37,376 nt of DNA. It comes from a virus. Each line of letters starts with the position of its first letter. Position 1 is the stretch's first letter. The stretch lies in IMG/VR virus record IMGVR_UViG_3300045988_112792; one strand, 5' to 3'. A program made the position numbers and the translations under genes. Shown here one piece after another: positions 1,679-37,376 of the stretch. The notes below the pieces were generated by a model. That model searched no databases. It was not told where the DNA came from and was given only the letters and a program-made list of their open reading frames with translations.

Positions 1679-2045
1679 GTGCGCAAAAAGCTTGCGCGCA
1701 AGTCTGCCCCATGCTAAAATATCAGCGTGCGCAAAAAATTAATCGTTTAAGCATCGGCACCGCGCAATATCAAAAACGTTTGCGCCGGGCTTTGCTTTGC
1801 GGTTGATGTAGATTATGCGGCGGCGGACATCCGCATAGGCGTACACATGGGGCTGGTCGGGCGCACTAATCGTGTCATAGTAGTAGCCGCCATATCGCGG
1901 GCGGCTCTTGTCGGATCGCAATAATATCGCCCCCCAGTATACTTGATGGTATATTATATGCCAGTCAAGCATAAAATATACCATGCAGCGGTCATAATGC
2001 AAAATTTTTGCGTTAATGATAATACATAAAAGTAGGTGTAAGAAA

Positions 2046-3200
2046 ATGGCAGTTAAGAAGTACACGACGGCAGAACCCCGATGGCTTGAGCAGTACGGTA
2101 GATGGCAGGTCAACGTCCAAAAGGACGGACGGCGCAAAACCTTTTCGTCGTCCATCGCCGGGCGCAAGGGCAAGGCCGAAGTCATGGCGCGCGCGACAGA
2201 ATGGCTGCAGTCTATGGACGCGGATAACATCCGGCTCTATGCCGCGTGGGATCGGTTTATGGCCGATCAGCAAAAAAACACCGGCAAATCCAACTGGGTC
2301 AAGCATGACAGTCACTGGCGCACTCACATCAAGCCCACTATCCCCGACAAGCGACTGGACAGCGTGACGCCGTTTGAGTGGCAGGCGTGCATCAATCACG
2401 CGGCGCAAAATGGCGCGAGTAAACGCACTTGCATTAACGTGCGCGCGACGATTATTAGATTTAGATCGTTTTGCGAGCTTGAGCGTTTTGCGCATACTAT
2501 ACCGGCCGGTACAGTGCTCAAGGTGCCTAAAAATACTCGATTCAAAAAGCGCATTATCCTCCAGCCCGACGATCTATACCGTCTTTTTACCACGGATCGC
2601 ATTACTAAGACGGTATACGGTACGCATCTGCGTACCACGCCCATATACTATATACATGCGTGGCGATTTTTAGTTGCGACGGGCTTGCGCCCCGGCGAAA
2701 TCATACCCTTGACGCATGATAGTATCGGTAAAGGTGGCATTTTATATATTGACGGCAGCCGCAATATCTTAAACGAGCACACCGACGGCAAAAATCAAAA
2801 CGCAATCCGCAAATTTATATTGACCCCGCTTGCTTTGCGAATACTGGACGATCAGGCTGATATGCTTAAGCAGCGCGGCATAATATCGCCTTACCTTTTC
2901 CCGGCGCCGGATGGCGGTCAGATCATATCATCGCGCCTCACACGGGCATGGTGTGATACGCGCGGCAGTCTGGGCATTAAGTCTCGCATGTACGACCTGC
3001 GTCACACTTATGTCAGCGTTGTCAAGTCCGACGTCCCCGACCCACTTCTGCGCGCGACGGTTGGACATAGCACTAAGATGGACACCTATGCCGTGTATGC
3101 GCATGAGCTGGACGGCGACATGCAGCGTGCCGCCGACATGGCTGAGGTAGCTTTTGATAAGGTTTTAGGTGGTGATATTGCCAATCCAAAAACACGTTAA
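2046..3200 (+). CDS. int: Tyrosine recombinase (phage integrase)
   Basis: RBS AGGTG then ATG 2046 (ORF track 2016-3200). Catalytic signature LRPGEII (Arg), HDLRHTY (His-x-x-Arg), GHSTKMDTYAVYAH (His ... Tyr). Lies directly upstream of a tRNA-like fragment. Confidence 0.9.
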   Translation: MAVKKYTTAEPRWLEQYGRWQVNVQKDGRRKTFSSSIAGRKGKAEVMARATEWLQSMDADNIRLYAAWDRFMADQQKNTGKSNWVKHDSHWRTHIKPTIPDKRLDSVTPFEWQACINHAAQNGASKRTCINVRATIIRFRSFCELERFAHTIPAGTVLKVPKNTRFKKRIILQPDDLYRLFTTDRITKTVYGTHLRTTPIYYIHAWRFLVATGLRPGEIIPLTHDSIGKGGILYIDGSRNILNEHTDGKNQNAIRKFILTPLALRILDDQADMLKQRGIISPYLFPAPDGGQIISSRLTRAWCDTRGSLGIKSRMYDLRHTYVSVVKSDVPDPLLRATVGHSTKMDTYAVYAHELDGDMQRAADMAEVAFDKVLGGDIANPKTR

Positions 3201-3413: not shown

Positions 3414-3455
3414 TCAAAAAACCCATTGATGCTGAAAAACGTCAATGGGTTTTTG
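3414..3455 (-). terminator. Bidirectional intrinsic terminator ending the Cys-repeat gene
   Basis: ACCCATTGA ... TCAATGGGT (3421-3429 / 3442-3450), flanked by an A6 run on one side and a T5 run on the other. Confidence 0.8.
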
Positions 3456-3484
3456 CATGTCGGCCAATGATTAAATTGTGCTGG

Positions 3485-4393
3485 TTAATCGTTGTCTAGC
3501 GTGCAGTTGTCGTCAAGCGTGCAGCCGTCGCCTAGCTCACAGTTGACGCCCAGTTCGCAACAGTCGCCCAGCTCGCAACAACTGCCCAGCTTGCACTCGT
3601 AGCCCAGCGTGCAGTTGTTGCCCAGCTTGCACTCGTCGCCCAGCGTGCAGTGGCTGTATAGCTCGCAACCGTTGCCCAGCGTGCAGTTGTTGCCCAGTTC
3701 GCAGCACATGACCAGTTCGCAACCGCTGCCCAGCGTGCAGCCGTCGCCCAGCTTGCACCCGCCGTATAGCTCGCAACCGCTGCCCAGCGTGCAGTTGTTG
3801 CCCAGCTTGCATCCGCTGCCTAGCCTGCATCTGCTGCCCAACGTGCAGCCGTCGCCGAGCGTGCAATCGCTGCCCAGCGTGCAGTAATTGCTCAGTGCGC
3901 AACACCTACCCAGCGCGCAGTTATAGCCGAGCTCGCAGTAATCGCCCAGTTTGCAACTGCTGCCAAGCGTGCAGCCGTCGCCTAGCTCGCAACTGCCGCC
4001 CAGCGTGCAGCCGTCGCCGAGCGTGCAATCGCTGCCCAGCTCGCAACACCTGTCCAGCGTGCAGTTGTCGCCGAGCGTGCAGCCGTCGCCTAGCTCGCAT
4101 CTGAAGTTCAGCCCGCACCTGCTGCCGAGCGTGCAGCCGTCGCCAAGCTTGCAGCCGTCGCCGAGCGTGCAATCGCTGCCCAGCGTGCAGTTGTCGCCGA
4201 GCGTGCAATCGCTGCCCAGCGTGCAATTGTCGCCGAGCTCGCAGTTGTCGCCCAGCCTGCAATCGTTCGCAAAAATCAGGCGCGCGTTATCGGCGCCAAA
4301 GTCTACTTTTGTCCAATTGCCGCTGGGCAGATGTTTATACCCGCACTCATCGCGCTCGATAGCCTTAAAATCATCCTGCTCGTAACACTTCAT
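3485..4393 (-). CDS. Acidic cysteine-rich hexapeptide-repeat protein (predicted left-handed beta-helix); cargo of cassette D
   Basis: RBS AAGGAG 8 nt before ATG 4393. A 46-aa N-terminal region is followed by 42 uninterrupted LGxxCx hexapeptides (LGDNCT, LGSDCT, LGDGCT ...). About 50 Cys, about 48 D/E versus about 19 K/R by my count. No signal peptide or TM segment. Confidence 0.85.
   Translation of the reverse strand: MKCYEQDDFKAIERDECGYKHLPSGNWTKVDFGADNARLIFANDCRLGDNCELGDNCTLGSDCTLGDNCTLGSDCTLGDGCKLGDGCTLGSRCGLNFRCELGDGCTLGDNCTLDRCCELGSDCTLGDGCTLGGSCELGDGCTLGSSCKLGDYCELGYNCALGRCCALSNYCTLGSDCTLGDGCTLGSRCRLGSGCKLGNNCTLGSGCELYGGCKLGDGCTLGSGCELVMCCELGNNCTLGNGCELYSHCTLGDECKLGNNCTLGYECKLGSCCELGDCCELGVNCELGDGCTLDDNCTLDND
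3500..4255 (-). repeat. Degenerate 18-bp tandem repeat x42 (coding, underlies the hexapeptide array)
   Basis: Units such as CAGCGTGCAGCCGTCGCC / GAGCGTGCAATCGCTGCC recur without interruption. They generate long shadow ORFs in other frames. Confidence 0.9.
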
Positions 4394-4504
4394 GCTTTTT
4401 TCTCCTTGCCCGGCGCTTTCCCGCGCCCGCGGCCTTGACTGTCCGTGCCTATATTATACTACTTTCCGCCGCGATTGTCAATACCAAATCGCACATTTTT
4501 TGCG
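4394..4504 (-). promoter_or_regulatory. Promoter-leader cassette copy D
   Basis: On the minus strand: TTGACA (4476-4481), 17-nt spacer, TATAAT (4453-4458), ATAGGCACGGACA, hairpin GCCGCGGGCGCGGGAAAGCGCCGGGC, then AAGGAG and ATG. Confidence 0.8.
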
Positions 4505-7180: not shown

Positions 7181-7295
7181 TTTTGTCCCTCCATGCCCGG
7201 CGCTTTTTCGCGCCCGCAGCCTTGACTGTCCGTGCCTATATTATACTACTTTACGCCGCGATTGTCAATACCAAATCACACATTTTTTGCAACAA
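7181..7295 (-). promoter_or_regulatory. Promoter-leader cassette copy E
   Basis: On the minus strand: TTGACA (7263-7268), 17-nt spacer, TATAAT (7240-7245), ATAGGCACGGACA, hairpin GCTGCGGGCGCGAAAAAGCGCCGGGC, GGAGGG. About 90% identical to copy D over about 115 bp. Confidence 0.8.
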
Positions 7296-9496: not shown

Positions 9497-9877
9497 CTAC
9501 TTTTCCGTCGGCGGCACCGGCCACACCACGCTTGCCGGGAACCCCGCCTGCTTGGTCACGTCCCTAAGCCGCTGCCGATACTCCGCCCATGCGGTACGCG
9601 CGGCATATGTGGACGGATAGTCGGTCGCCTGCGTGTAGTCGCTTGCCGCCAGCAGCGCGTCCCGCTTTGCGCGCACATCGGCGGCCATCTGCTCGTAGTC
9701 GGGCGCGGCCTCGCCGCCGCTGCCGTCCGCTTCAGCGGGCGCGCCCGTCACGCCCACTATCCCGTCATACTCATCCTGCGTAATCCAGCCCTTGATTACG
9801 GCATTTTTGAGCATTTTTTTTGTCCAAAGCTGCTTAGCATAGTACCCCTTGACCAGTTCATACCTCTTGCTTGCCAT
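9497..9877 (-). CDS. XkdX-like N-terminus fused to a tail-fibre assembly (chaperone)-like C-terminus
   Basis: GGGAG RBS 8 nt before ATG 9877. N-terminal YYAKQLWTKKMLKNAVIKGWITQDEYDGIV (XkdX-like). C-terminal RDALLAASDYTQATDYP ... YRQRLRDVTKQAGFPASVVWPVPP (tail-fibre assembly motif). Confidence 0.55.
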   Translation of the reverse strand: MASKRYELVKGYYAKQLWTKKMLKNAVIKGWITQDEYDGIVGVTGAPAEADGSGGEAAPDYEQMAADVRAKRDALLAASDYTQATDYPSTYAARTAWAEYRQRLRDVTKQAGFPASVVWPVPPTEK

Positions 9878-11903
9878 CCGTCTCACTCCCTTCTATGCCC
9901 GTCGGCATGTCCATGCCGCTATCCGCGTCTGCATCGTCTACCGCCGTCAGGTCGTCCACGTCCACGTCTGCCATCATGGCGACGTAATCCAGCTTTGCAG
10001 CCTGCGCCTCTGCCGTGCTCGCCGTGGTCTGGGGCGGCGTGGGGGCAGTTATAGTCAGAGTGTCTGCGTCGGTTATGATTGCGTTTGTGCCAGCCAGCGC
10101 AAGCACCGTCTGCCCGCCCGTTGCCGTAAAAGGCACGGGCGTAGCCAGCTTGTACGCCACCTGCGCGCCAATCGTAGGAGTAGCCCCTGCCGCATACTCA
10201 TCCCTGTCGCTGATCCACTTACCCGGCAGGGTCTCGCCTGCATAGCTATCGATATGGCCCCACGTCTCTTGCCCCTGTCCTGTGATTGTATCGATTATGC
10301 CACCATAAATGGTGCGAGGCAGTGTCAGCAAGGATTGCTTGCCCGCATATGGCTGATATTCTGCGGGCACTGCCTCGGGCGCATATACGCCTATCTTTAG
10401 GGTCATGTCTACCATCACGCCGGGCACCCAGTCCTTTGCATCCACCTGCAAGGCTATAACATTCTCCTTTTGTGTCCTAAGGCCATATAGTTTGTGCGAC
10501 AAATATGTGCCACTCGTTACTGTGCTGGTGATTTTTAGCCCACGTCCACTTAGCAAGTAATTATTCAGGTATACTATCGCAAAGCTCCGAGCGCCGCTTA
10601 CGTTGTATGTGCCCTTGATTCGGATCGTGCTCTCGCCGATGGGCTCAATTGTTAAACCGTAGGCCTCTATGGAGGAGGTGTCAATATCGTCCGGATTTAG
10701 CAAGTTTGCATTTGATTCCCGCAGCGTTACAAGCTTAGTTCCTGTTATCGGCCTTATATTATCCGGCGACGGTGTGCCGCTGCCCTCCTGCTTAGGCTCC
10801 CAGCTCGCACTTAGCTCCAAAGGATACCCCTCAAGCGCCTCTATGACCACAGGATTACCTGTCACGGTCTGCATCGGCAGTAGCTTATCCACCGTATTCT
10901 TACTCGACCACGCCTTACCCTCCGCGATAACCGTATCGTCGATAATCCCCGCCGCATCCTGCGCGGCCTTTTCAGCCGCCTCCGCACTCGCCGCCGCCGC
11001 GCTCGCAGACTGCGCCGCCGCATCCTTACTGCCCGCCGCCGCCGCGGCGCTGCCCGCCGCATCGCTCGCCGCCGCGCCCGCCGCCGTCTGTGCCGCCTGT
11101 GCCGCGTCCCGCGCCGCCGCCGATTGGCTCGCGCTTCCCGCCGCCGCCGATGCAGACCCCGCCGCGTCCGTAGCCGATTGCGCCGCGCTGCTCTTACTGC
11201 CCGCCGCATCGCTCGCCGATTCAGCCGCCGCCCGCGCCGATCCTGCCGCCGCGTCCGCCGACTCCTTGACGCTATCCAGCGTGCCCGCCGCCGCCGCCGC
11301 GCTTTCCGCTGACGCTTTGGCCGATGTATCTGCCGCCGCCGCCGACTGCGCCGCTGCGCTTGCCGACCCGCTCGCCGCGTCCGCCGACGTTGCCGCGCTC
11401 GCGGCCGACTTGCTCGCCGCACTTGCGCTGCCCGCCGCCGCGTTTGCACTCGACTGCGCCGCCGCCGCCGATCCCGCCGCCGCCGCCGCGCTTTCCTGCG
11501 CCGCCGCCATCGCGCCCTGCGCCGCGTCGCTCGCGTCCAGCACGTCCTTGACCCAGCCGCTTTGCGTATCGGTATCGGGCGGGGTCAGGCTGGGCGCTAT
11601 CGCCGTGGCCGCGATTACCGACTTAGCCACCTTATCATCGACCGTGGCCACTATCTCAATCGCGCCCAGCCCCGCGACTGCCATCGCGTCCATGTCGGGC
11701 GACCACGTGATAACGCCCGTGTCGCTTACGTCCGCCTTGACTATGCGCGCCGTCTCGCCGCGCGTGCGCCGCTGCATCAGCGTCAGCCGCGCGCCCGGAT
11801 AGTCGTTCAGCATCTTCGCGCAGTCGATCTCGACCGCGCGCGCGTACTGCTCGCCCTGTCTGCCCAGCGGTATCGACTTGGGCAGGTCGTATATATCGTA
11901 CAT
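9858..11903 (-). CDS. Tail fibre / receptor-binding protein with a long Ala/Ser-rich coiled region
   Basis: RBS GGAGGGG before ATG 11903 (ORF track extends to 12017). About 200 aa of SA/AA low-complexity repeats (DNA 10947-11537). Position is downstream of the distal tail genes. Confidence 0.7.
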   Translation of the reverse strand: MYDIYDLPKSIPLGRQGEQYARAVEIDCAKMLNDYPGARLTLMQRRTRGETARIVKADVSDTGVITWSPDMDAMAVAGLGAIEIVATVDDKVAKSVIAATAIAPSLTPPDTDTQSGWVKDVLDASDAAQGAMAAAQESAAAAAGSAAAAQSSANAAAGSASAASKSAASAATSADAASGSASAAAQSAAAADTSAKASAESAAAAAGTLDSVKESADAAAGSARAAAESASDAAGSKSSAAQSATDAAGSASAAAGSASQSAAARDAAQAAQTAAGAAASDAAGSAAAAAGSKDAAAQSASAAAASAEAAEKAAQDAAGIIDDTVIAEGKAWSSKNTVDKLLPMQTVTGNPVVIEALEGYPLELSASWEPKQEGSGTPSPDNIRPITGTKLVTLRESNANLLNPDDIDTSSIEAYGLTIEPIGESTIRIKGTYNVSGARSFAIVYLNNYLLSGRGLKITSTVTSGTYLSHKLYGLRTQKENVIALQVDAKDWVPGVMVDMTLKIGVYAPEAVPAEYQPYAGKQSLLTLPRTIYGGIIDTITGQGQETWGHIDSYAGETLPGKWISDRDEYAAGATPTIGAQVAYKLATPVPFTATGGQTVLALAGTNAIITDADTLTITAPTPPQTTASTAEAQAAKLDYVAMMADVDVDDLTAVDDADADSGMDMPTGIEGSETDGKQEV

Positions 11904-11914
11904 GCTTACCCCTC

Positions 11915-12166
11915 CTACTGCTTGGGATTGCCTATCGGATACTCCACCACATACGTGCCGCTTATCTTGACTATCTTGACGCGCTGTCCCGCCGCAAACG
12001 TCAGCGCCGCGTTGCACTTATAGTGCTTTGCCGTCGGCTCGCTGTCGCCGTCAAAGATGAGCGATATGCCGTCGCTGTACACCGCGCCCACCGTGGCCAG
12101 CTGCGCCGCCGCGGGCGCGGCGCGTTCATCCTCCAGCGACTTTTTGGTTTGATAGTCCATTATCAT
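11915..12166 (-). CDS. Small tail/baseplate-associated protein
   Basis: ORF translationally coupled to its neighbours within the tail module. No specific motif. Confidence 0.5.
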   Translation of the reverse strand: MIMDYQTKKSLEDERAAPAAAQLATVGAVYSDGISLIFDGDSEPTAKHYKCNAALTFAAGQRVKIVKISGTYVVEYPIGNPKQ

Positions 12167-30890: not shown

Positions 30891-31238
30891 TCAGTCCCCT
30901 CCTGTCAAAATCCACTTATATATCGTCGTTTTCTCGCGTCCAAACGCCTGCGCAATCGCGCCCAGCGACAGACCCTCGCGCATATGCAGCCGTCTGGCCA
31001 GCCGTTTTTCTTTTTCGCTTGCCCGGAAGGCGCTTGCGAAGCCGTACTGATCGTATGCGCGCCGTGCGCGCACCACCTGCCGGTTAAACTTTGCGTGCGC
31101 GGGGTCGATTGGTTTTTCTGCGCACTGCGCGGCGATTATGTCGCGCATGGTATCCTCATCCGTGCCATAGGCGCGCGCCACGTCGGCCATGGTGGCCGAC
31201 GTGCGGCAAAAAAGTATCGTCGCTTGTCGTGCCGTCAT
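30891..31238 (-). CDS. HTH DNA-binding protein
   Basis: RBS GGAG before ATG 31238. C-terminal LSLGAIAQAFGREKTTIYKWI. Confidence 0.6.
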   Translation of the reverse strand: MTARQATILFCRTSATMADVARAYGTDEDTMRDIIAAQCAEKPIDPAHAKFNRQVVRARRAYDQYGFASAFRASEKEKRLARRLHMREGLSLGAIAQAFGREKTTIYKWILTGGD

Positions 31239-31239
31239 A

Positions 31240-32034
31240 TTATTCTCCTTCGGCTGGTTCTTTTTTTGCCCACGGAAATTCCTGCTTGAAGTCATCGCCC
31301 ATCAAGTCGCGCAGGCTATCTTTCATGAAGATTGGCTTTCCCAGCTCCGCACAAACCATTGCGATGTTGTCAATCCATGCTTTTTCGGGAACGACCTTTT
31401 CTTTGCGATTGCCCGTTTCCACCCCAACAATAACCCATTCATTTGTTGCGGCAATCTCCATCGCTTCCGCACGGGATAGATTGCGCAGCAAAGGCTCTAT
31501 GCTCACGAAGCGGCTTTGCCACGGAGGGAGCACAAGAGGCGTGTAATTGCGCGCTGCACCAGTAAAGCTCTGACCAAACCACATTTCGGCCACGTTCGGC
31601 GGTCGCCTGTGCCTCGGCAAGAGATTGGGCAGTTGCGCATACCTGCCGGGGTTCTTGGTCAAGAACATGTATCGGTGCTGCGAGGCCTCATCACAGGCTT
31701 CAAAGATTTCTTGAATCCACTCGTCCGGCACCCATTCGCCGAACAAATCGGCCATGCTGCACACGAAGATGTTGCGCGGCTTTTTCCAGTGCTGCGGCTC
31801 ATCCAGTTTATAGCGGTGGAACGTGGGCTTGAAGCCGTAAGGATACGATTCCGGCCTCGTGCGCACTCGGCGCGTAGGAACATGGAGCACAGGCTCATAT
31901 GGCCTTTTATATTTCTTTTCGGTGCTGAACCGCTCCGCAATTTTCCGTGCATAACAGTATTTACACCCATGCAAGCAGCCGGTTACGGGATTCCATGTGC
32001 TGTCACACCAGTCAATTTTTGTCTTACTTCCCAT
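31240..32034 (-). CDS. Phage Gp37/Gp68-family (DUF5131-like) protein
   Basis: N-terminal KIDWCDSTWNPVTGCLHGCKYCYA signature. RBS GAGGT 7 nt before ATG 32034 (ORF track to 32091). Confidence 0.7.
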   Translation of the reverse strand: MGSKTKIDWCDSTWNPVTGCLHGCKYCYARKIAERFSTEKKYKRPYEPVLHVPTRRVRTRPESYPYGFKPTFHRYKLDEPQHWKKPRNIFVCSMADLFGEWVPDEWIQEIFEACDEASQHRYMFLTKNPGRYAQLPNLLPRHRRPPNVAEMWFGQSFTGAARNYTPLVLPPWQSRFVSIEPLLRNLSRAEAMEIAATNEWVIVGVETGNRKEKVVPEKAWIDNIAMVCAELGKPIFMKDSLRDLMGDDFKQEFPWAKKEPAEGE

Positions 32035-32099
32035 TTTCGCTACCTCTAATATACTGTCGTCATATGCCATGCCGATATTTTCATCAGGCATGGATCATG

Positions 32100-32291
32100 T
32101 CATTCCCCTCCCTCCGGCGCGGCAGGCGGCGACATCCAGTGCGTTATCAGCTTGGACGTGCCCATCAGCGGGTTATCCCACCCCAGCATCTGCGTGCCGT
32201 TGTATATGTGCCATACCATCACGCATCCCCACGCGTCCGCGTCCTGCGCGGTCGGACGGCGCTCGGCCATCGGTATCCATGTCATACTCAT
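32100..32291 (-). CDS. Small hypothetical protein (DUF551-like?)
   Basis: RBS GGAGGGG. WIPMAERRP ... VMVW pattern. Confidence 0.45.
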   Translation of the reverse strand: MSMTWIPMAERRPTAQDADAWGCVMVWHIYNGTQMLGWDNPLMGTSKLITHWMSPPAAPEGGE

Positions 32292-32542
32292 ACTCCATAC
32301 CCCTCCAGCATAGTCGCGCCGATCTCGTCCATGATCCGGCTTAGCTCGTCAATCGCCGCCTCGGCGTTTGGCTGCCAGTCGAATTCGTTATCCACCTGCC
32401 ACACCCAGTGCCGCTCGGGCTGTGCGGAGTAGACGTGATAGCCATACCCCGGCACCCACCTGACGCGGTACTTTGTGTATGTTTCTTCATCCTTGTACAG
32501 CGGCCCCACAAAGCAGGGACCCGCTCCATACCCGCAATACAT
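32288..32542 (-). CDS. Hypothetical protein (84 aa)
   Basis: RBS AAGGTGGTGGG before ATG 32542 (ORF track to 32692). Confidence 0.55.
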   Translation of the reverse strand: MYCGYGAGPCFVGPLYKDEETYTKYRVRWVPGYGYHVYSAQPERHWVWQVDNEFDWQPNAEAAIDELSRIMDEIGATMLEGYGV

Positions 32543-32811
32543 CACCCGCCCACCACCTTGAGTACCGGCGGTTCGCACTCTGCGTATCCGTCCGGCGGGA
32601 AGTAATCGTATATCTCTCTGAGGGGCAACCCCATCCAGCGCATGATCTCGTATGCCTCGCCCATGTCCCACGAGGCCACGCCGCGTATGCACTTGCTTAC
32701 GTAGTCCACGCTGCGCCTCAGATGCACGGCCACGTCGCTTTGGAGCAAGTCGCGCTCCATCATCGCCGCACGCAATTTGGCGTATGGCCGCGTACGTCTT
32801 TGCTTAGTCAT
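32542..32811 (-). CDS. Small HTH (XRE-like) protein
   Basis: RDLLQSDVAVHLRRSVDYVSKCIRG helix-turn-helix pattern. Confidence 0.55.
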   Translation of the reverse strand: MTKQRRTRPYAKLRAAMMERDLLQSDVAVHLRRSVDYVSKCIRGVASWDMGEAYEIMRWMGLPLREIYDYFPPDGYAECEPPVLKVVGG

Positions 32812-33091
32812 GATACCCTAGCCCCCTCCTCTTGGCGCGCCGCGAACCGTTGCCGCCGTGATCGCTGTAGCACGGGTCGAGCTGGATGAAGCCTCCGTAT
32901 ACGGTCGCTTCGTCCGGCAGTAAGCGCCGCGCGTCCAGCTCATACTGTCGAAAATGCTTATACACACTCTCGACACTCCACAGCTTGCGCGCACGCTCGC
33001 GCGCGTCGGGCAAGTTGTCGGCCAGCAGGTCGATCGCCCAGTGATGCCTGCGGATTGTGCGCGTCTCAAAAGTCACACGATACCTGTCCAT
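32804..33091 (-). CDS. Hypothetical protein (95 aa; alternative start at 33184)
   Basis: Excellent RBS GGGAGG 8 nt before ATG 33091. The longer ORF-track form would start inside the sRNA terminator hairpin. Confidence 0.55.
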   Translation of the reverse strand: MDRYRVTFETRTIRRHHWAIDLLADNLPDARERARKLWSVESVYKHFRQYELDARRLLPDEATVYGGFIQLDPCYSDHGGNGSRRAKRRGLGYHD

Positions 33092-33105
33092 TTCTATATC
33101 CTCCC

Positions 33106-33134
33106 TTGACAACGCTGGCTCGGAGGTGTATAAT
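33106..33134 (+). promoter_or_regulatory. Perfect consensus promoter on the + strand inside the minus-strand early operon
   Basis: TTGACA 33106-33111, exactly 17 nt, TATAAT 33129-33134. Confidence 0.6.
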
Positions 33135-33140
33135 ACGTAT

Positions 33141-33217
33141 GTCAAACGTTGACCCTCCAGAGTGTCAGCTTTGATTGTCCGCATAGCGCCCTCGACACCT
33201 ACGGGGCGCTATTTTTT
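33141..33217 (+). ncRNA. Predicted ~77-nt antisense small RNA (promoter-to-terminator unit)
   Basis: Start inferred about 7 nt after the -10. Internal GTCAA ACG TTGAC hairpin. Terminator TAGCGCCC ... GGGCGCTA (33184-33211) + T6 (33212-33217). No RBS or credible ORF. Confidence 0.45.
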
Positions 33218-33221
33218 AGTA

Positions 33222-33455
33222 TCATTCGTCGTATGATTCAATCGCCCTTTTGGCGGCTTTCCATTTCATCATGCGATGAAAATTCTTGTCAATCTCCGTT
33301 TGGGCGATTTCCGTTAGCACCGGCTTTAGGGCTGATACTTCATATTTTTCGCCGCGCCTGATGTGCGCCTTGTCAAACGTCTTTGCCACCGCCCAATCTA
33401 CTGTCGCATATGACAGGTCAAACATTTTCGCTATGCCGCCGACGGTCATTTTCAT
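33222..33455 (-). CDS. Small HTH protein (Cro/excisionase-type)
   Basis: RBS AAGGAGGAG. TVGGIAKMFDLSYATVDWAV helix-turn-helix. Confidence 0.6.
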   Translation of the reverse strand: MKMTVGGIAKMFDLSYATVDWAVAKTFDKAHIRRGEKYEVSALKPVLTEIAQTEIDKNFHRMMKWKAAKRAIESYDE

Positions 33456-33501
33456 TTCAAACCTCTCCTCCTTTTTTCTTGTTCGGCACGGCGCGTGTGC
33501 G

Positions 33502-33666
33502 TCACGCCGGTTTGCGCTGTATGCTATCCATTTGCGCCATCATGCACATGCCAGACAGCACGTTGACGATCTTGCGCTGTGTATCTGGCGTAAGCTGTGA
33601 TAGTACTTTGATGCAGTCCAGTAGCTGCATATCCTGCGGTGCTGGTGCCGTCGCAGTCGGTGTCAT
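33502..33666 (-). CDS. First early-operon protein (54 aa), unknown function
   Basis: RBS GGGAG 8 nt before ATG 33666. About 27 nt downstream of the predicted early promoter start. Confidence 0.5.
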   Translation of the reverse strand: MTPTATAPAPQDMQLLDCIKVLSQLTPDTQRKIVNVLSGMCMMAQMDSIQRKPA

Positions 33667-33699
33667 CTTATCATCTCCCGTTTGTGTGATTGCATGTGT

Positions 33700-33728
33700 A
33701 TTATACCACACACGGTTGCACACGTCAA
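33700..33728 (-). promoter_or_regulatory. Early lytic promoter (PR analogue)
   Basis: Minus strand: TTGACG (33723-33728), 17-nt spacer, TATAAT (33700-33705). Flanked by TGTGTG/CACAC motifs. Confidence 0.65.
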
Positions 33729-33750
33729 TACTTTCAGGATAATTTTAGAC

Positions 33751-33779
33751 TTGATTTTGTCCTGAATGTGTGATAATAT
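33751..33779 (+). promoter_or_regulatory. Repressor promoter (PRM analogue)
   Basis: TTGATT 33751-33756, 17-nt spacer, TAATAT 33774-33779. Overlaps the TGTGTGAT motif. Confidence 0.5.
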
Positions 33780-33804
33780 ATATGTATGGATTGGAGGTGA
33801 TACA

Positions 33805-34347
33805 ATGGCAGACACAATTAATGCTCGCTTTAGGGCTTTGCGCAAACGGCTCGACTTAACTATCGCGCAAATGGCGGATGTGCTGGGCTTGTCGCCGTCC
33901 GGCATATCGGCGATCGAGTGTGCACAGCGTAACGTTACTGATAAGCACATTCGGCTTTTGGCAAGTGCATATCCGCGCCTTAATGTCGAGTGGCTTAAAA
34001 GCGGCGAGGGCGATATATTTTTGCCTGAAAGCGACCATACAGGCAGTATAGATGATCTATGCGCTCAATACGGTCTTGACAGTATGGCCGCGTCTATGCT
34101 GCGCAGCTATGTCCAGCTTGACGCCGAGCATCGTCAGATGATACACGACTGGCTTATGGCGTGGCATGACGACTATGACAAGCGCAAGGCGCGCACCAGC
34201 GGCGGCGATGGCCAGACCGCCGACGATGCAGCGCCCTCCAGCGCAGACCCGGACGCCGACTTTAAACGGCAGGTGCTTGAGGGTCGCGCGCGGCACGAGG
34301 CATACATGGCCGCCCAGCGCGACGCCGAAAGCAAGCAGGCGCAGTAG
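33805..34347 (+). CDS. XRE-family HTH repressor (CI analogue), no S24 peptidase domain
   Basis: RBS GGAGGTG then ATG 33805. LTIAQMADVLGLSPSGISAIECAQRNV HTH. Divergent from the early operon. The C-terminal half lacks a Ser/Lys autoprotease signature. Confidence 0.8.
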   Translation: MADTINARFRALRKRLDLTIAQMADVLGLSPSGISAIECAQRNVTDKHIRLLASAYPRLNVEWLKSGEGDIFLPESDHTGSIDDLCAQYGLDSMAASMLRSYVQLDAEHRQMIHDWLMAWHDDYDKRKARTSGGDGQTADDAAPSSADPDADFKRQVLEGRARHEAYMAAQRDAESKQAQ

Positions 34348-34360
34348 CGACCGACCAATG

Positions 34361-34390
34361 ACCGCCCCACTTTGGGGCGGTTCTTTTTTT
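34361..34390 (+). terminator. Intrinsic terminator after the repressor gene
   Basis: ACCGCCCCA CTT TGGGGCGGT followed by TCTTTTTTT. Confidence 0.85.
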
Positions 34391-34410
34391 ATGCGAGCGG
34401 CAAAATTTTT

Positions 34411-34498
34411 TTGAAAAAAGCGCTTTAGGGTATTGACATTCGCGGCGGAAAGTAGTATAATATAGGCACGGACAATCAATAAATGGAGGACGAGAACG
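34411..34498 (+). promoter_or_regulatory. Promoter cassette copy C (lacks the leader hairpin)
   Basis: TTGACA 34433-34438, 17 nt, TATAAT 34456-34461, ATAGGCACGGACA, then GGAGG and ATG 34499. Confidence 0.8.
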
Positions 34499-35116
34499 AT
34501 GTGTGACGAGATTAAGATTACAAAGGTAGCTGACGACAAGATAGAGGTTCGCACCCCGTACAACCCGCAGTTTGTATCTAAAATAAAGACTGCGGGCGCG
34601 CGCTGGAACGCCATTGATAAGGCGTGGACGATGCACGCCGCCAACATCGACGTGGCGCGCGAAATCCTGCGCGCGGTGTATGGCCGCGACGATATGCCCG
34701 CGGCGGACGAAAAGCTGGTGCGCGTGCGCGTCACCGCGCTGCAAAACATCAGCGCAGACCGCGGGCCGATAGTCCTGCTGGGGCGTATCATCGCTTCCGC
34801 GCGCGGCCGCGATTCCGGCGCGCGCGTCGGTGAAGGCGTTGCGTTTATAGATGGAAAGCCGCAGAGCGGCGGCAGCGTGAAGAACTGGACGACTGAGATT
34901 AGCGAGGGTAGCATTTTCGTGGTGGCCGACGTACCCACCACGCTGCTTGGCGAGCTGGATGAGACCGGCTGGCGTGGGCAGAAGCTGTATCGGTACGAAA
35001 TCATTGACGACGACCGTGACGAGCAGCTCCGCAAGCTGCAGGCGCGCCGCGAAGAGCTGGCCGCCGCCTTGGCCGATATTGATGCGCAGATTAATGCGCT
35101 TAAAGGAGGTAACTAA
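34499..35116 (+). CDS. Hypothetical protein; DUF5710-like N-terminus + C-terminal coiled coil
   Basis: VRTPYNPQFVSKIKTAGARWNAIDKAWTM resembles the (K)ALGARWD...KxW motif. C-terminal LRKLQARREELAAALADIDAQINALK. Confidence 0.65.
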   Translation: MCDEIKITKVADDKIEVRTPYNPQFVSKIKTAGARWNAIDKAWTMHAANIDVAREILRAVYGRDDMPAADEKLVRVRVTALQNISADRGPIVLLGRIIASARGRDSGARVGEGVAFIDGKPQSGGSVKNWTTEISEGSIFVVADVPTTLLGELDETGWRGQKLYRYEIIDDDRDEQLRKLQARREELAAALADIDAQINALKGGN

Positions 35117-35118
35117 AA

Positions 35119-35667
35119 ATGAAGTTTGATATTTTTGCCGTTGATAACGTTAACGGCGGTCGGTGGTTTTTCGATGTGCGTCCGGATGCAGATTGCATCC
35201 GGTACGCGGTGGACATCCCCGACGCGTACGACCCCGTTCGCGGCGACGATGGGCATATATCGTTGACGCGCGAGGGCGAAGAGTATTCGCTGGACGATAT
35301 TTTAACGGCCAACGACATCAATCAACCAGTCTTTAATTGGCCCTACATCACGGGAGACTGCGATGCGCCATGCGTTGCTTTGGAGGTGTTACCCAGCGGC
35401 GAGCGCGAGCCGTTGTCATGGCCGGAGGGCGTTGACGATTTGATAAGCCGTTTTGCGTCAATGGGGCTGCGCTTTAGCATCCACCCCGAGACCGGGCAGC
35501 TGGTAATCAGACCCGAGGATAGCGCCGCGCGGTTTGTGCGCAAGATGTATCCCAAAGAGCTTGAGGTCATCCGGTATGGTCTCAAAAACCGCTGGAATCA
35601 AAGGCGTTACGCTGAGCTTGCGCGGCAGCAGTCAACCGAAAAAGCCGCCGAAAAGGATGGGGAGTGA
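35119..35667 (+). CDS. Hypothetical protein (182 aa)
   Basis: RBS AAAGGAGG. Tightly coupled to flanking genes. No motif recognised. Confidence 0.65.
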   Translation: MKFDIFAVDNVNGGRWFFDVRPDADCIRYAVDIPDAYDPVRGDDGHISLTREGEEYSLDDILTANDINQPVFNWPYITGDCDAPCVALEVLPSGEREPLSWPEGVDDLISRFASMGLRFSIHPETGQLVIRPEDSAARFVRKMYPKELEVIRYGLKNRWNQRRYAELARQQSTEKAAEKDGE

Positions 35668-35669
35668 CG

Positions 35670-36245
35670 ATGATGATCTCCCTGAAGGACTATGCCGACA
35701 AGATCGGCAAGCCCTACCCCTTGGTCTACCAAAAAGCCGTGCGCGGCGGCTTTGAGACCGCGCAAAAGGTCGGCTCGCGCTGGGTGATAGAGGCCAGCGA
35801 GCCGTGGATTGATATGCGCGCAAAAGCAGCGCGCTACCCCGCCGCCGTGCCTGCCGATGCCGACGACTTGGTGCCCGTCGCTGACTACGCGCGCGACCGT
35901 GGTATAGACGTGCGCAACGTCGAGCGCAAGGCCGCCCGCGGCTCACTTAAGACGGCGCGCAAGATTGGGGATCGCTTGTACGTCAGCGCAAGCGAGCCAT
36001 ACACCGACGCGCGGACGCGCTCCCCGCTTGCGGCGCAGCGTGACACAAGCGCCGAGCCACGCCTGATACCGCTTGTTGAATACAGCGAGCGGCTGGGCAA
36101 GCACAAATCGCACATTTTACGTAAGGCTGCGCGCGGCGATTTTAAGACCGCGCGCAAGATCGGCGGGTGCTGGTACATCTCCGCCGATGAGCCTTATGTT
36201 GACCGACGCGTCATTTCTGGTGCGTACAAGGATTGGCGCAAATAG
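35670..36245 (+). CDS. Protein built from three tandem excisionase/MerR-type winged-HTH repeats
   Basis: Three ~55-aa units, each with (D/E)YA..(I/L)G ... RKAARG.(F/L)KTA(R/Q)K(I/V)G..(W/L)(Y/V).(S/A)(A/S).EP(Y/W).D.R. GGGGAG RBS before ATG 35670. Confidence 0.7.
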   Translation: MMISLKDYADKIGKPYPLVYQKAVRGGFETAQKVGSRWVIEASEPWIDMRAKAARYPAAVPADADDLVPVADYARDRGIDVRNVERKAARGSLKTARKIGDRLYVSASEPYTDARTRSPLAAQRDTSAEPRLIPLVEYSERLGKHKSHILRKAARGDFKTARKIGGCWYISADEPYVDRRVISGAYKDWRK

Positions 36246-36278: not shown

Positions 36279-36677
36279 ATGACTTTGAATGACGTTATGG
36301 CCGCCGGGAAGCGCGTGGTCGGTTTGTGTGCTGGACGACATCAGCTGCCGGTGGATGAATATATTTACGGCGAAATCAAGGACGTTCTTGATTTCGCCGG
36401 ATTGCTTCATATCGCGGACAAATATGTCCACGAACATTGTAATCCGCGCAATGCGATCGGCAGCGCTATTAACGGCTGGGATGATACTAAAATAGTTGTT
36501 GGCGAGCCGCTGAATGTGATCGTGACGGGACTAACGCCATGCACGGCAGCCGTCATGTATGCTTGCGCGTGTTACGGCGTTGACTTAACGCTATGGCACT
36601 ACGATCGCGAGGCCGACGACTATAAGCCTCAGTCGTTTCGTTTCGCCATAACCCCCAATCGTTTCGCTTCGCCATAA
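36279..36677 (+). CDS. Hypothetical protein (132 aa)
   Basis: RBS GGGAGAG. The 3' end runs through a 22-bp direct repeat. Confidence 0.6.
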   Translation: MTLNDVMAAGKRVVGLCAGRHQLPVDEYIYGEIKDVLDFAGLLHIADKYVHEHCNPRNAIGSAINGWDDTKIVVGEPLNVIVTGLTPCTAAVMYACACYGVDLTLWHYDREADDYKPQSFRFAITPNRFASP

Positions 36678-36680: not shown

Positions 36681-36692
36681 TGCAATAGTTTA

Positions 36693-36722: not shown

Positions 36723-36829
36723 GTAAAAATGCGCCTTTGCATATTGACATTCGCGGCGCAAAGTAGTATAATATAGGCACGGACAATCAAAGCCGCGGGC
36801 GCGAAAAAGCGCCGGGCGTGGAGGCGGCA
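36723..36829 (+). promoter_or_regulatory. Promoter-leader cassette copy B
   Basis: TTGACA 36744-36749, 17 nt, TATAAT 36767-36772, ATAGGCACGGACA, hairpin 36792-36817, GGAGG, ATG 36830. Confidence 0.8.
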
Positions 36830-37236: not shown

Positions 37237-37267
37237 GTGTCGCTCGTATGAGCGGCACTTTTTTTTT
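37237..37267 (+). terminator. Intrinsic terminator (copy 2)
   Basis: GTGTCGCTC GTAT GAGCGGCAC + T9. The T-run continues into the terminal repeat. Confidence 0.85.
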
Positions 37268-37376
37268 GCAAAAATGCGTTTTTAGCTATTGACATTCGCG
37301 GCAAAAAGTAGTATAATATAGGCACGGACAAGATAAGCCGCGGGCGCGAAAAAGCGCCGGGCGTGGAGGGTAAGAA
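37258..37376. repeat. Second copy of the terminal direct repeat (equals 1-119; contains the duplicate image of promoter cassette A)
   Basis: Identical to 1-119 by direct comparison. Confidence 0.95.

Follow-up and report, generated by a model that had tools for sequence, protein, structure and literature searches.

A probable, conserved small RNA gene opposite the early operon of a temperate phage and its predicted anti-Shine–Dalgarno switch

We analyzed a 37,376-nt stretch of viral DNA (IMG/VR record IMGVR_UViG_3300045988_112792; "the window" below is this whole stretch) and focused on a + strand unit at positions 33106–33217. The unit is very probably a conserved gene for a small RNA (sRNA) of ~77 nt with its own promoter and terminator. 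Judged from its sequence and from those of its relatives, it is a previously undescribed phage sRNA gene of the cis-antisense kind, in which promoter and mRNA-switch information are overlaid, unusually, on opposite strands. We lean slightly toward the reading that the gene is genuine, is selectively maintained and acts in cis as a negative gate on the early operon through an anti-Shine–Dalgarno (anti-SD) sequence; a trans regulon for the sRNA is plausible. Antisense control of lysis–lysogeny circuitry is textbook knowledge for enterobacterial phages (OOP, sar, c4). To our knowledge, such control is almost undescribed in the abundant temperate phages of gut Clostridia.

Promoter, terminator and boundaries of the unit

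The sRNA promoter consists of the −35 hexamer TTGACA (33106–33111), a 17-nt spacer (33112–33128) and the −10 hexamer TATAAT (33129–33134), exactly as an earlier note on this DNA had claimed. Its −35 box directly adjoins the complement of the Shine–Dalgarno (SD) sequence of a minus-strand gene of 95 aa. A 6-nt discriminator (33135–33140) separates the −10 hexamer from G33141, the predicted transcription start, and the predicted sRNA of about 73–77 nt (33141–33217) ends in an intrinsic terminator (33183–33217). The 8-bp GC hairpin followed by T6 that the note described is present: TAGCGCCC (33184–33191) pairs with GGGCGCTA (33204–33211), and T6 occupies 33212–33217. When the A33183-U33212 pair is counted, the stem grows to 9 bp, with a 12-nt loop and U6. 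The coordinates of the open reading frames (ORFs) also bear out that the unit lies in a gap between minus-strand genes, since it falls entirely within the 130 nt that separate ORFs 33455..33222 (77 aa) and 33091..32804 (95 aa).

The earlier note had further argued that so perfect a promoter would seldom arise by chance. In 100 dinucleotide-preserving shuffles of the window, 0.00 occurrences of the perfect 12/12 pattern were expected, which agrees with that argument; yet the window holds seven such sites, six of them distinct in the circular genome (1–119 duplicates 37258–37376). Five of the six distinct promoters belong to a repeated cassette with a shared spacer, and the spacer of the sRNA promoter is unrelated to it. 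Perfect consensus hexamers are the normal strong promoter of this phage, which makes the sRNA site more credible as a working promoter.

These counts bear on a very improbable reading, in which the unit is a chance pairing of promoter and terminator, a decayed promoter cassette or a tiny protein-coding gene. Five other perfect promoters in the phage make a decayed sixth conceivable; the unrelated spacer argues against that descent. Chance predicts zero perfect promoters, and neither chance nor decay fits the 12 conserved variants with compensatory changes described below. A tiny gene might begin at ATG 33139, which lies 12 nt past GGAGG and opens the sole + strand ORF candidate (11 codons). 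However, relatives shift its frame, alter its length or lose the ATG, and the GGAGG is upstream of the transcription start. The claim that the unit contains no credible ORF therefore stands.

Conservation and fold of the RNA

To collect related loci, we used homologues of the 95-aa protein and also scanned for exact matches to the RNA core, which gave 12 distinct versions of the unit from related gut-metagenome phage contigs (individual loci carry L numbers here). Both promoter hexamers are invariant among the variants. Spacer positions 3–11, at the centre of the spacer, vary, as does the 6-nt discriminator; GGAGG(T) at 33122–33127 in the spacer is invariant. Conservation restarts with invariant sequence exactly at G33141, seven bases past the −10 box. 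At the other end, homology among relatives stops exactly past the last T, beyond which lie at least four unrelated flanks because the upstream gene has been swapped or is missing. The 77-aa gene on that side (33222–33455, minus strand) is optional, being absent or replaced in L005, L009 and L024, and the unit remains linked to the 95-aa gene (32804–33091, minus strand) even where the 77-aa gene is absent. Together, the invariant hexamers, the variable spacer centre and the conserved boundaries from +1 to the last T indicate that the unit is selected as a transcription unit.

The 77-nt + strand RNA has a predicted minimum free energy (MFE) of −28.9 kcal/mol (z = −4.7 versus shuffles), whereas its complement has z = −2.2. 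The MFE architecture is identical in all variants and comprises a 12-bp bulged hairpin, the linker UGUCCGC and the terminator. Hairpin 1 (33141–33175) is built of a basal stem GUCAAA/UUUGAU, a 1-nt bulge and an upper stem GUUGAC/GUCAGC. The upper stem forms in relatives as UUGAC/GUCAG, UUGGC/GUCAG, UUGGC/GCCGA and (C)UCGGC/GCCGA; read from the individual folds, pairing in hairpin 1 survives two or more double compensatory changes, and wobble intermediates occur. The terminator also varies with its pairing kept. A paired C/G insertion lengthens its stem in five variants (L016, L018, L019, L020 and L024), L007 has a U-A in place of a U.G pair plus extra pairs, and the U-run is always 6–7 nt long.

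Two sequence elements stand out. The C-rich, anti-SD-like loop of hairpin 1, CCCUCC (33153–33158), is kept in 11 of the 12 variants and reads CCCUUC in L005. The seed, CUUUGAUUGUCCG (33169–33181), is identical in all 12, and its 3′ part, UGUCCG(C), forms the 7-nt single-stranded linker. A covariance model (R1) built from the variants found exactly one copy per related locus, at 91–102 bits, and no homologous unit in Butyrivibrio phage Arawn. Twelve variants conserve the unit, and their substitutions are those of a promoter followed by a structured RNA; this supports the proposal of an sRNA of ~77 nt with its own promoter and terminator, and from these features we infer that it is expressed. 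The + strand was assigned from the direction in which the promoter and the U-run point.

Position within the early operon

The element is a temperate tailed phage. Positions 1–119 and 37258–37376 are identical (a 119-nt terminal repeat), so the genome is circularly closed at 37,257 bp. A tyrosine integrase gene (2016..3200, +) and an HTH_3 repressor-like gene (33766..34347, +) are present, and the latter is divergent from an early lytic promoter, TTGACG-17-TATAAT with a TG extension (33700–33728, minus strand), that is convergent with the sRNA promoter. This strong promoter is followed by a long operon that encodes small early genes, a DUF5131 protein, a rolling-circle Rep, a methylase, terminase and structural genes. 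The earlier note was correct in placing the unit in the early lytic operon of a temperate phage, and the position of the unit opposite this minus-strand operon supports an RNA antisense to the early lytic transcript.

The 95-aa gene, always linked to the unit, is the likely target of regulation in cis. Its ORF can be extended on the minus strand to 126 aa or 113 aa, but in relatives frame shifts, a TAA ahead of the ATG or a deletion of 2 nt interrupt these extensions, and the real start is thus ATG 33091. It follows that the sRNA covers no real start codon and overlaps no real coding sequence. The note had allowed that a longer ORF starting at 33184 might be the real one, with its start codon covered by the sRNA; the breaks in relatives remove this possibility.

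A predicted anti-SD switch in the early mRNA

On the early mRNA, the stretch to which the sRNA is complementary spans 50–126 nt ahead of the 95-aa gene's ATG. Outside this duplex lies the gene's SD, GGGAGG (33100–33105, minus strand, 8 nt before ATG 33091). Because complementarity ends 50 nt short of the ATG and leaves the SD free, direct occlusion of the ribosome-binding site (RBS) is excluded. The invariant spacer GGAGG (33122–33126), which the promoter does not need, reads CCUCC on the early mRNA and is a candidate anti-SD. The complement of the hairpin-1 loop CCCUCC reads GGAGGG on the same mRNA, a pseudo-SD. In the predicted fold of the free leader, the pseudo-SD is paired with the anti-SD and the real SD is open. 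When the stretch complementary to the sRNA is blocked, CCUCC is predicted to pair instead with the SD, whose probability of being unpaired in the window drops from 0.89 to 0.05. Such a drop on blocking is seen in 8 of 10 variants (for example, from 0.83 to 0.06 in L020). The earlier note had proposed, as one of two modes of action, that the RNA blocks translation of the downstream gene. Its direct form, cover of the RBS, fails; an indirect block through the conserved anti-SD and pseudo-SD is plausible.

We infer the direction of regulation and the switch itself from this arrangement, and the following mechanism is proposed. A constitutive consensus sigma-A/sigma-70 promoter (33106–33134) would start the RNA at about G33141, and transcription would end in the U-run at 33212–33217. 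The RNA would fold into hairpin 1, the 7-nt single-stranded linker and the terminator. On a free early mRNA, GGAGGG would pair with CCUCC and leave the real SD (33100–33105) open. Once the sRNA occupies its 77-nt complement, CCUCC, just outside the duplex, would be freed to capture the SD, and translation of the 95-aa gene and the overlapping downstream genes would be turned off. The 77-bp duplex might contribute further as an RNase III substrate. The convergent promoters would interfere mutually, such that strong early transcription after induction lowers sRNA synthesis. The sRNA would thereby form a negative gate, placed after the first one or two immediate-early genes and ahead of the remaining early operon, and the anti-SD arrangement would suit a decision made cotranscriptionally. 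In lambda, the counterpart of such a gate is the tR1/N checkpoint after cro.

Several observations weigh against a cis gate of this kind. The switch fails in L005, in which the SD is shut in both states, and is reversed in L016; moreover, predictions of SD accessibility depend on the mRNA window chosen. Automatic covariation statistics, computed on MAFFT and covariance model alignments, do not reach significance, as the family is shallow (proteins ≥83% identical) and bulged arms of the CTCGGC class fall out of register. As indicators of the strand, G.U pairs are mixed across the variants. The presumed target has no match in Pfam, PHROGs, NCBIfam or the PDB, and its AlphaFold 2 model has a predicted local distance difference test (pLDDT) score of 46. 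Finally, pure cis-antisense action needs no invariant primary sequence, and the invariant 23-nt block from seed to terminator may reflect a further constraint, imposed by trans targets or by a protein.

The same leader can be read without any base-pairing role for the sRNA. The conserved sequence would then serve the minus-strand early mRNA as a structured leader or RBS switch, or the promoter would merely interfere with or roadblock early transcription, the + strand RNA being a by-product. The leader does fold with the pseudo-SD:anti-SD pairing and a GACAA/UUGUC closing helix, and in several variants the complement folds about as well as the + strand, which also counts against the cis gate. 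A perfect convergent promoter ~590 bp downstream of the early promoter is, in addition, the classical geometry of interference. Against this reading stand the invariant hexamers around a variable spacer centre, conservation that runs from the predicted +1 to the last T of the terminator, and a conserved U-run that is functional only on the + strand. On the minus strand the hairpin lacks a following U-run and therefore is no terminator there, and interference alone does not require a conserved RNA body of 77 nt. We consider this explanation unlikely, and retain the negative cis gate as the slightly favored one.

An upstream frame in the early mRNA (33145..33092, minus strand) opens at TTG 33145, which the pseudo-SD GGAGGG precedes by 7 nt. 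It shares the frame of the 95-aa ORF in the window, hence the "113-aa" gene call. A TAA overlapping the ATG closes it in L005 and L007 (AUGUAAAUG), and it is frame-shifted in L007 and L009. This frame might be translated and coupled to the 95-aa gene, although the peptide is unconserved.

Promoter-leader cassettes and predicted pairing in trans

The five cassettes that carry the other perfect promoters lie at 32–60 (+; identical to 37289–37317), 34433–34461 (+), 36744–36772 (+), 4481–4453 (−) and 7268–7240 (−), and each promoter is flanked by ~50 nt upstream and 60 nt downstream of shared sequence. The cassettes are built of an upstream intrinsic terminator, an A/T-rich stretch and a perfect TTGACA-17-TATAAT with the conserved spacer (T/A)TCGCGGCnnAAAGTAG. 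Their conserved leader reads ATAG(G/A)CACGGACAA and continues through an optional covarying hairpin, GCCGCGGGCGC-GAAAAA-GCGCCGGGC, to GGAGG and ATG. The same cassettes flank other cargo genes in relatives L001, L005, L010 and L018–L021. They look like mobile promoter-leader modules for accessory genes. In L010 (1–1627; VALL22-1 scaffold_2911), the slot beside the repressor gene holds an AcrVA2-like gene and a GNAT acetyltransferase gene, which suggests that the cassettes deliver anti-defence or accessory cargo.

The leader of cassette P36744 contains, roughly between +9 and +22, CGGACAATCAAAG, to which the seed CUUUGAUUGUCCG is perfectly complementary (36780–36792). The full motif of this leader, CGGACAATCAAAGC (36780–36793, +), is a perfect 14-bp complement of the sRNA. 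In the other cassettes, the corresponding motifs are CGGACAATCAA in P34433 (34469–34479, +; 11 bp, ending ~5 nt before the SD), CGGACAGTCAAGGCTG in P7240(−) (7217–7232, −; 16 bp including two G.U), CGGACAGTCAAGGC in P4453(−) (4432–4445, −; 14 bp including two G.U) and CGGACAAGATAAGC in P32, the same as 37289 (68–81, +; 7 + 4 bp). These matches raise the possibility, which we regard as doubtful though still worth serious attention, that the sRNA is mainly or additionally a trans regulator of the five cassettes. The seed would pair with the leader motif CGGACAAUCAAAG and the loop CCCUCC with the cassette SD, with the effect of blocking translation or altering the stability of accessory, excision and exonuclease operons. 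This would be compatible with the cis model, and the perfect 77-nt complement in the early transcript would act as a sponge that removes the sRNA on induction.

Plain duplex-energy scans do not discriminate in a genome this GC-rich, and we replaced them with a contiguous-pairing scan and cofold binding energies (ddG). In the contiguous-pairing scan, the cassette leaders are, the cis site aside, the best low-wobble complementarities in the whole genome. Cofold binding energies range from −14.7 to −25.1 kcal/mol, compared with −7.5 ± 7.4 kcal/mol for 264 other SD-containing initiation regions. Complexes joined at two sites, seed and loop:SD, are predicted in 14 of 14 leaders from seven phages with their own sRNA, and scrambling of the seed costs ~2–10 kcal/mol there; the covarying leader hairpin is predicted to stay folded between the two pairing sites, and in long and short leaders alike the motif is free of structure at the 5′ end of the mRNA. 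Pairing in trans would also explain an invariant seed beside a freely covarying upper stem, and the sole change in the basal stem, from A5 to G in variant L018, affects the arm across from the seed.

Other findings tell against trans regulation. The cassettes are paralogous, so their matches amount to about one independent observation, and since the seed never varies, there is no seed/motif covariation to be had. Pairing is broken in some leader variants (GAT for TCA, T to A, or a 1-nt deletion), and a bias toward wobble-compatible transitions is not significant (4/4 compatible, with an estimated chance probability of ~0.26). The sRNA leaves unpaired the most conserved leader bases, AUAG(G/A)CA, and hairpin 1 buries 8 of the 13 bases of the seed. 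The leader motif that the cassettes share could instead be a protein or DNA site.

A combination of both activities is a tentative proposal that we consider less likely than not. The sRNA would be a dual riboregulator that gates the early operon in cis through the spacer-encoded anti-SD and represses (or stabilizes) in trans, through two-site pairing, five strong, constitutive and horizontally exchangeable cassettes; on induction, the early transcript would titrate the sRNA through its perfect 77-nt complement and collide with its promoter. If so, the lytic operon and the entire cassette regulon would switch in one step.

Comparison with known regulatory RNAs

The earlier note had likened the RNA to lambda OOP, a 77-nt RNA antisense to cII (PMC12197685). 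Size class, possession of a promoter and an intrinsic terminator, and an antisense position in the rightward or early operon of a temperate phage are common to both, and RNase III cleavage dependent on a duplex is, by analogy, a plausible shared step. The anatomy differs, however. OOP overlaps the 3′ end of cII and favors lysis by lowering cII, whereas the phage sRNA overlaps no conserved ORF, is confined to an intercistronic leader ahead of its presumed target gene and would hold lytic genes back. Nor did we find homology to OOP, with no Rfam match and no DNA similarity to the region of the unit in 50,697 phage records. The OOP-like label therefore does not hold, and the arrangement is closer to that of P22 sar, a 68/69-nt antisense regulator of the antirepressor gene ant (PMC12197685).

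Like sar, the phage sRNA is intercistronic and has a strong promoter of its own that is convergent with the operon promoter and overlaps the downstream translation-start region; by analogy, it would be expected to reduce translation of the downstream gene. Whereas sar covers the ant RBS, the 5′ end of the phage sRNA falls 50 nt upstream of the ATG, and the SD is not part of the duplex. The two RNAs are not similar in sequence or by Rfam, the 95-aa protein is not recognizably an antirepressor, and the host is of Gram-positive type rather than enterobacterial. In position the unit resembles P22 sar more than lambda OOP, and it is a member of neither family.

The predicted seed and loop pairing follows the same logic as that of P1/P7 c4 (PMC12197685 and general knowledge), which contacts its target at two places, one of them the RBS region, through short exposed sequences. 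However, c4 is processed from its target's own transcript and lacks an opposite-strand promoter; the phage sRNA has one, and its trans pairing is a prediction. In the modeled fold, the unpaired CCCUCC of the hairpin loop (11 of 12 variants), complementary to a G-rich SD, is reminiscent of the C-rich-loop Rsa RNAs of Firmicutes (PMC2790875), and the second, distant pairing site predicted on the same mRNA recalls the two-site binding of RNAIII to coa (PMC2837412). The sRNA differs from RsaE, RoxS and RNAIII in being phage-encoded, has no sequence relationship to them (no Rfam match) and has targets assigned in silico.

For the repeated cassettes rather than the sRNA, the nearest parallel is the promoter–stem-loop regulatory cassettes (PeSLs) of T4-type phages, mobile elements reportedly described by Arbiol et al. 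in 2010. Both are repeated terminator-promoter-leader modules that flank exchangeable accessory genes. The cassettes here differ in residing in a temperate siphovirus-like genome and in carrying a conserved leader motif that matches a phage sRNA.

Being compact and highly conserved, with unusually clean signals, the unit offers an excellent test case for several questions: whether an antisense RNA can act by anti-SD release instead of covering the RBS, whether one 30-bp stretch can carry promoter information on one strand and mRNA regulatory information on the other, and whether one phage sRNA can coordinate mobile promoter-leader cassettes with accessory and anti-defence cargo. The combination of a perfect promoter, a short RNA and a short target motif could be a portable regulatory part for Firmicutes.

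Database searches and rejected identities

No Rfam family was found for the RNA, either in a scan of the whole window at gathering thresholds or in a scan of 33000–33300 at E ≤ 10, which returned nothing beyond noise; no tRNA or tmRNA was found. A search of 31000–35200 against phage GenBank DNA (50,697 records) gave only short coding matches far from the unit. A type I toxin-antitoxin system was rejected, as its target should be a hydrophobic protein of <60 aa and the neighbors (77 and 95 aa) are hydrophilic and charged. The reading as an RNA anti-CRISPR is not supported, and no type-specific repeat handle was seen by eye.

A pattern scan of IMG/VR for the 5′ part of the sRNA recovered only the same contig. 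Two 20-mer matches to the sRNA core in GTDB genomes were dismissed as chance, as they lie in coding DNA and lack promoter or terminator, and two metagenome matches (L014 and L017) were likewise judged to be chance. L003 and L004 appeared as distant homologues of the 95-aa protein and proved spurious, being antisense to structural genes. The GTDB genomes yielded nothing in a pattern scan for the cassette and no homologues of the 95-aa protein; across GTDB species representatives, the exact-pattern scans for sRNA core and cassette and the protein search thus returned no similar sequence and no prophage or host match. The large terminase shares ~60% identity with its counterparts in Butyrivibrio phages Arawn and Idris, and the host is probably a member of the Clostridia.

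Other features of the genome

The spacer of the early promoter (33700–33728, minus strand) contains operator-like repeats that differ among relatives, and the sRNA module downstream is the same in all. The window has a direct repeat, CACACG-N4-CACACG, others have a palindrome, ACACGTG-N4-CACGTGT, and others have AT-rich versions. The groups compared were the window with L009, L010, L018 and L019; L001, L007, L015, L016 and L020; and L005. This distribution indicates that several immunity types are combined with one sRNA module.

Two of the cassettes precede genes with candidate functions. Cassette P34433, on the repressor/integrase strand, would express a 193-aa protein (35664–36245, +) with HTH_17/excisionase-like (Cox-like) matches, a candidate excisionase or regulator of the cassettes. 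Cassette P4453 would, from its position, express ORF 4393..3485 (−), a putative 302-aa hexapeptide-repeat (left-handed beta-helix) acyltransferase that may be a lysogenic-conversion enzyme; an 18-nt periodicity over ~800 nt (3451–4290, −) corresponds to this ORF. A tandem 26-nt repeat (85% identical; 36622–36673, +) lies at the 3′ end of a 132-aa ORF, just before a terminator at 36692. Finally, a segment of 71% GC (10930–11530, −) within structural ORF 12017..9858 (719 aa) contains degenerate, GCCGCC-rich 21/42-nt repeats that are Ala-rich in frame, and the protein is probably a tape-measure or fibre protein.

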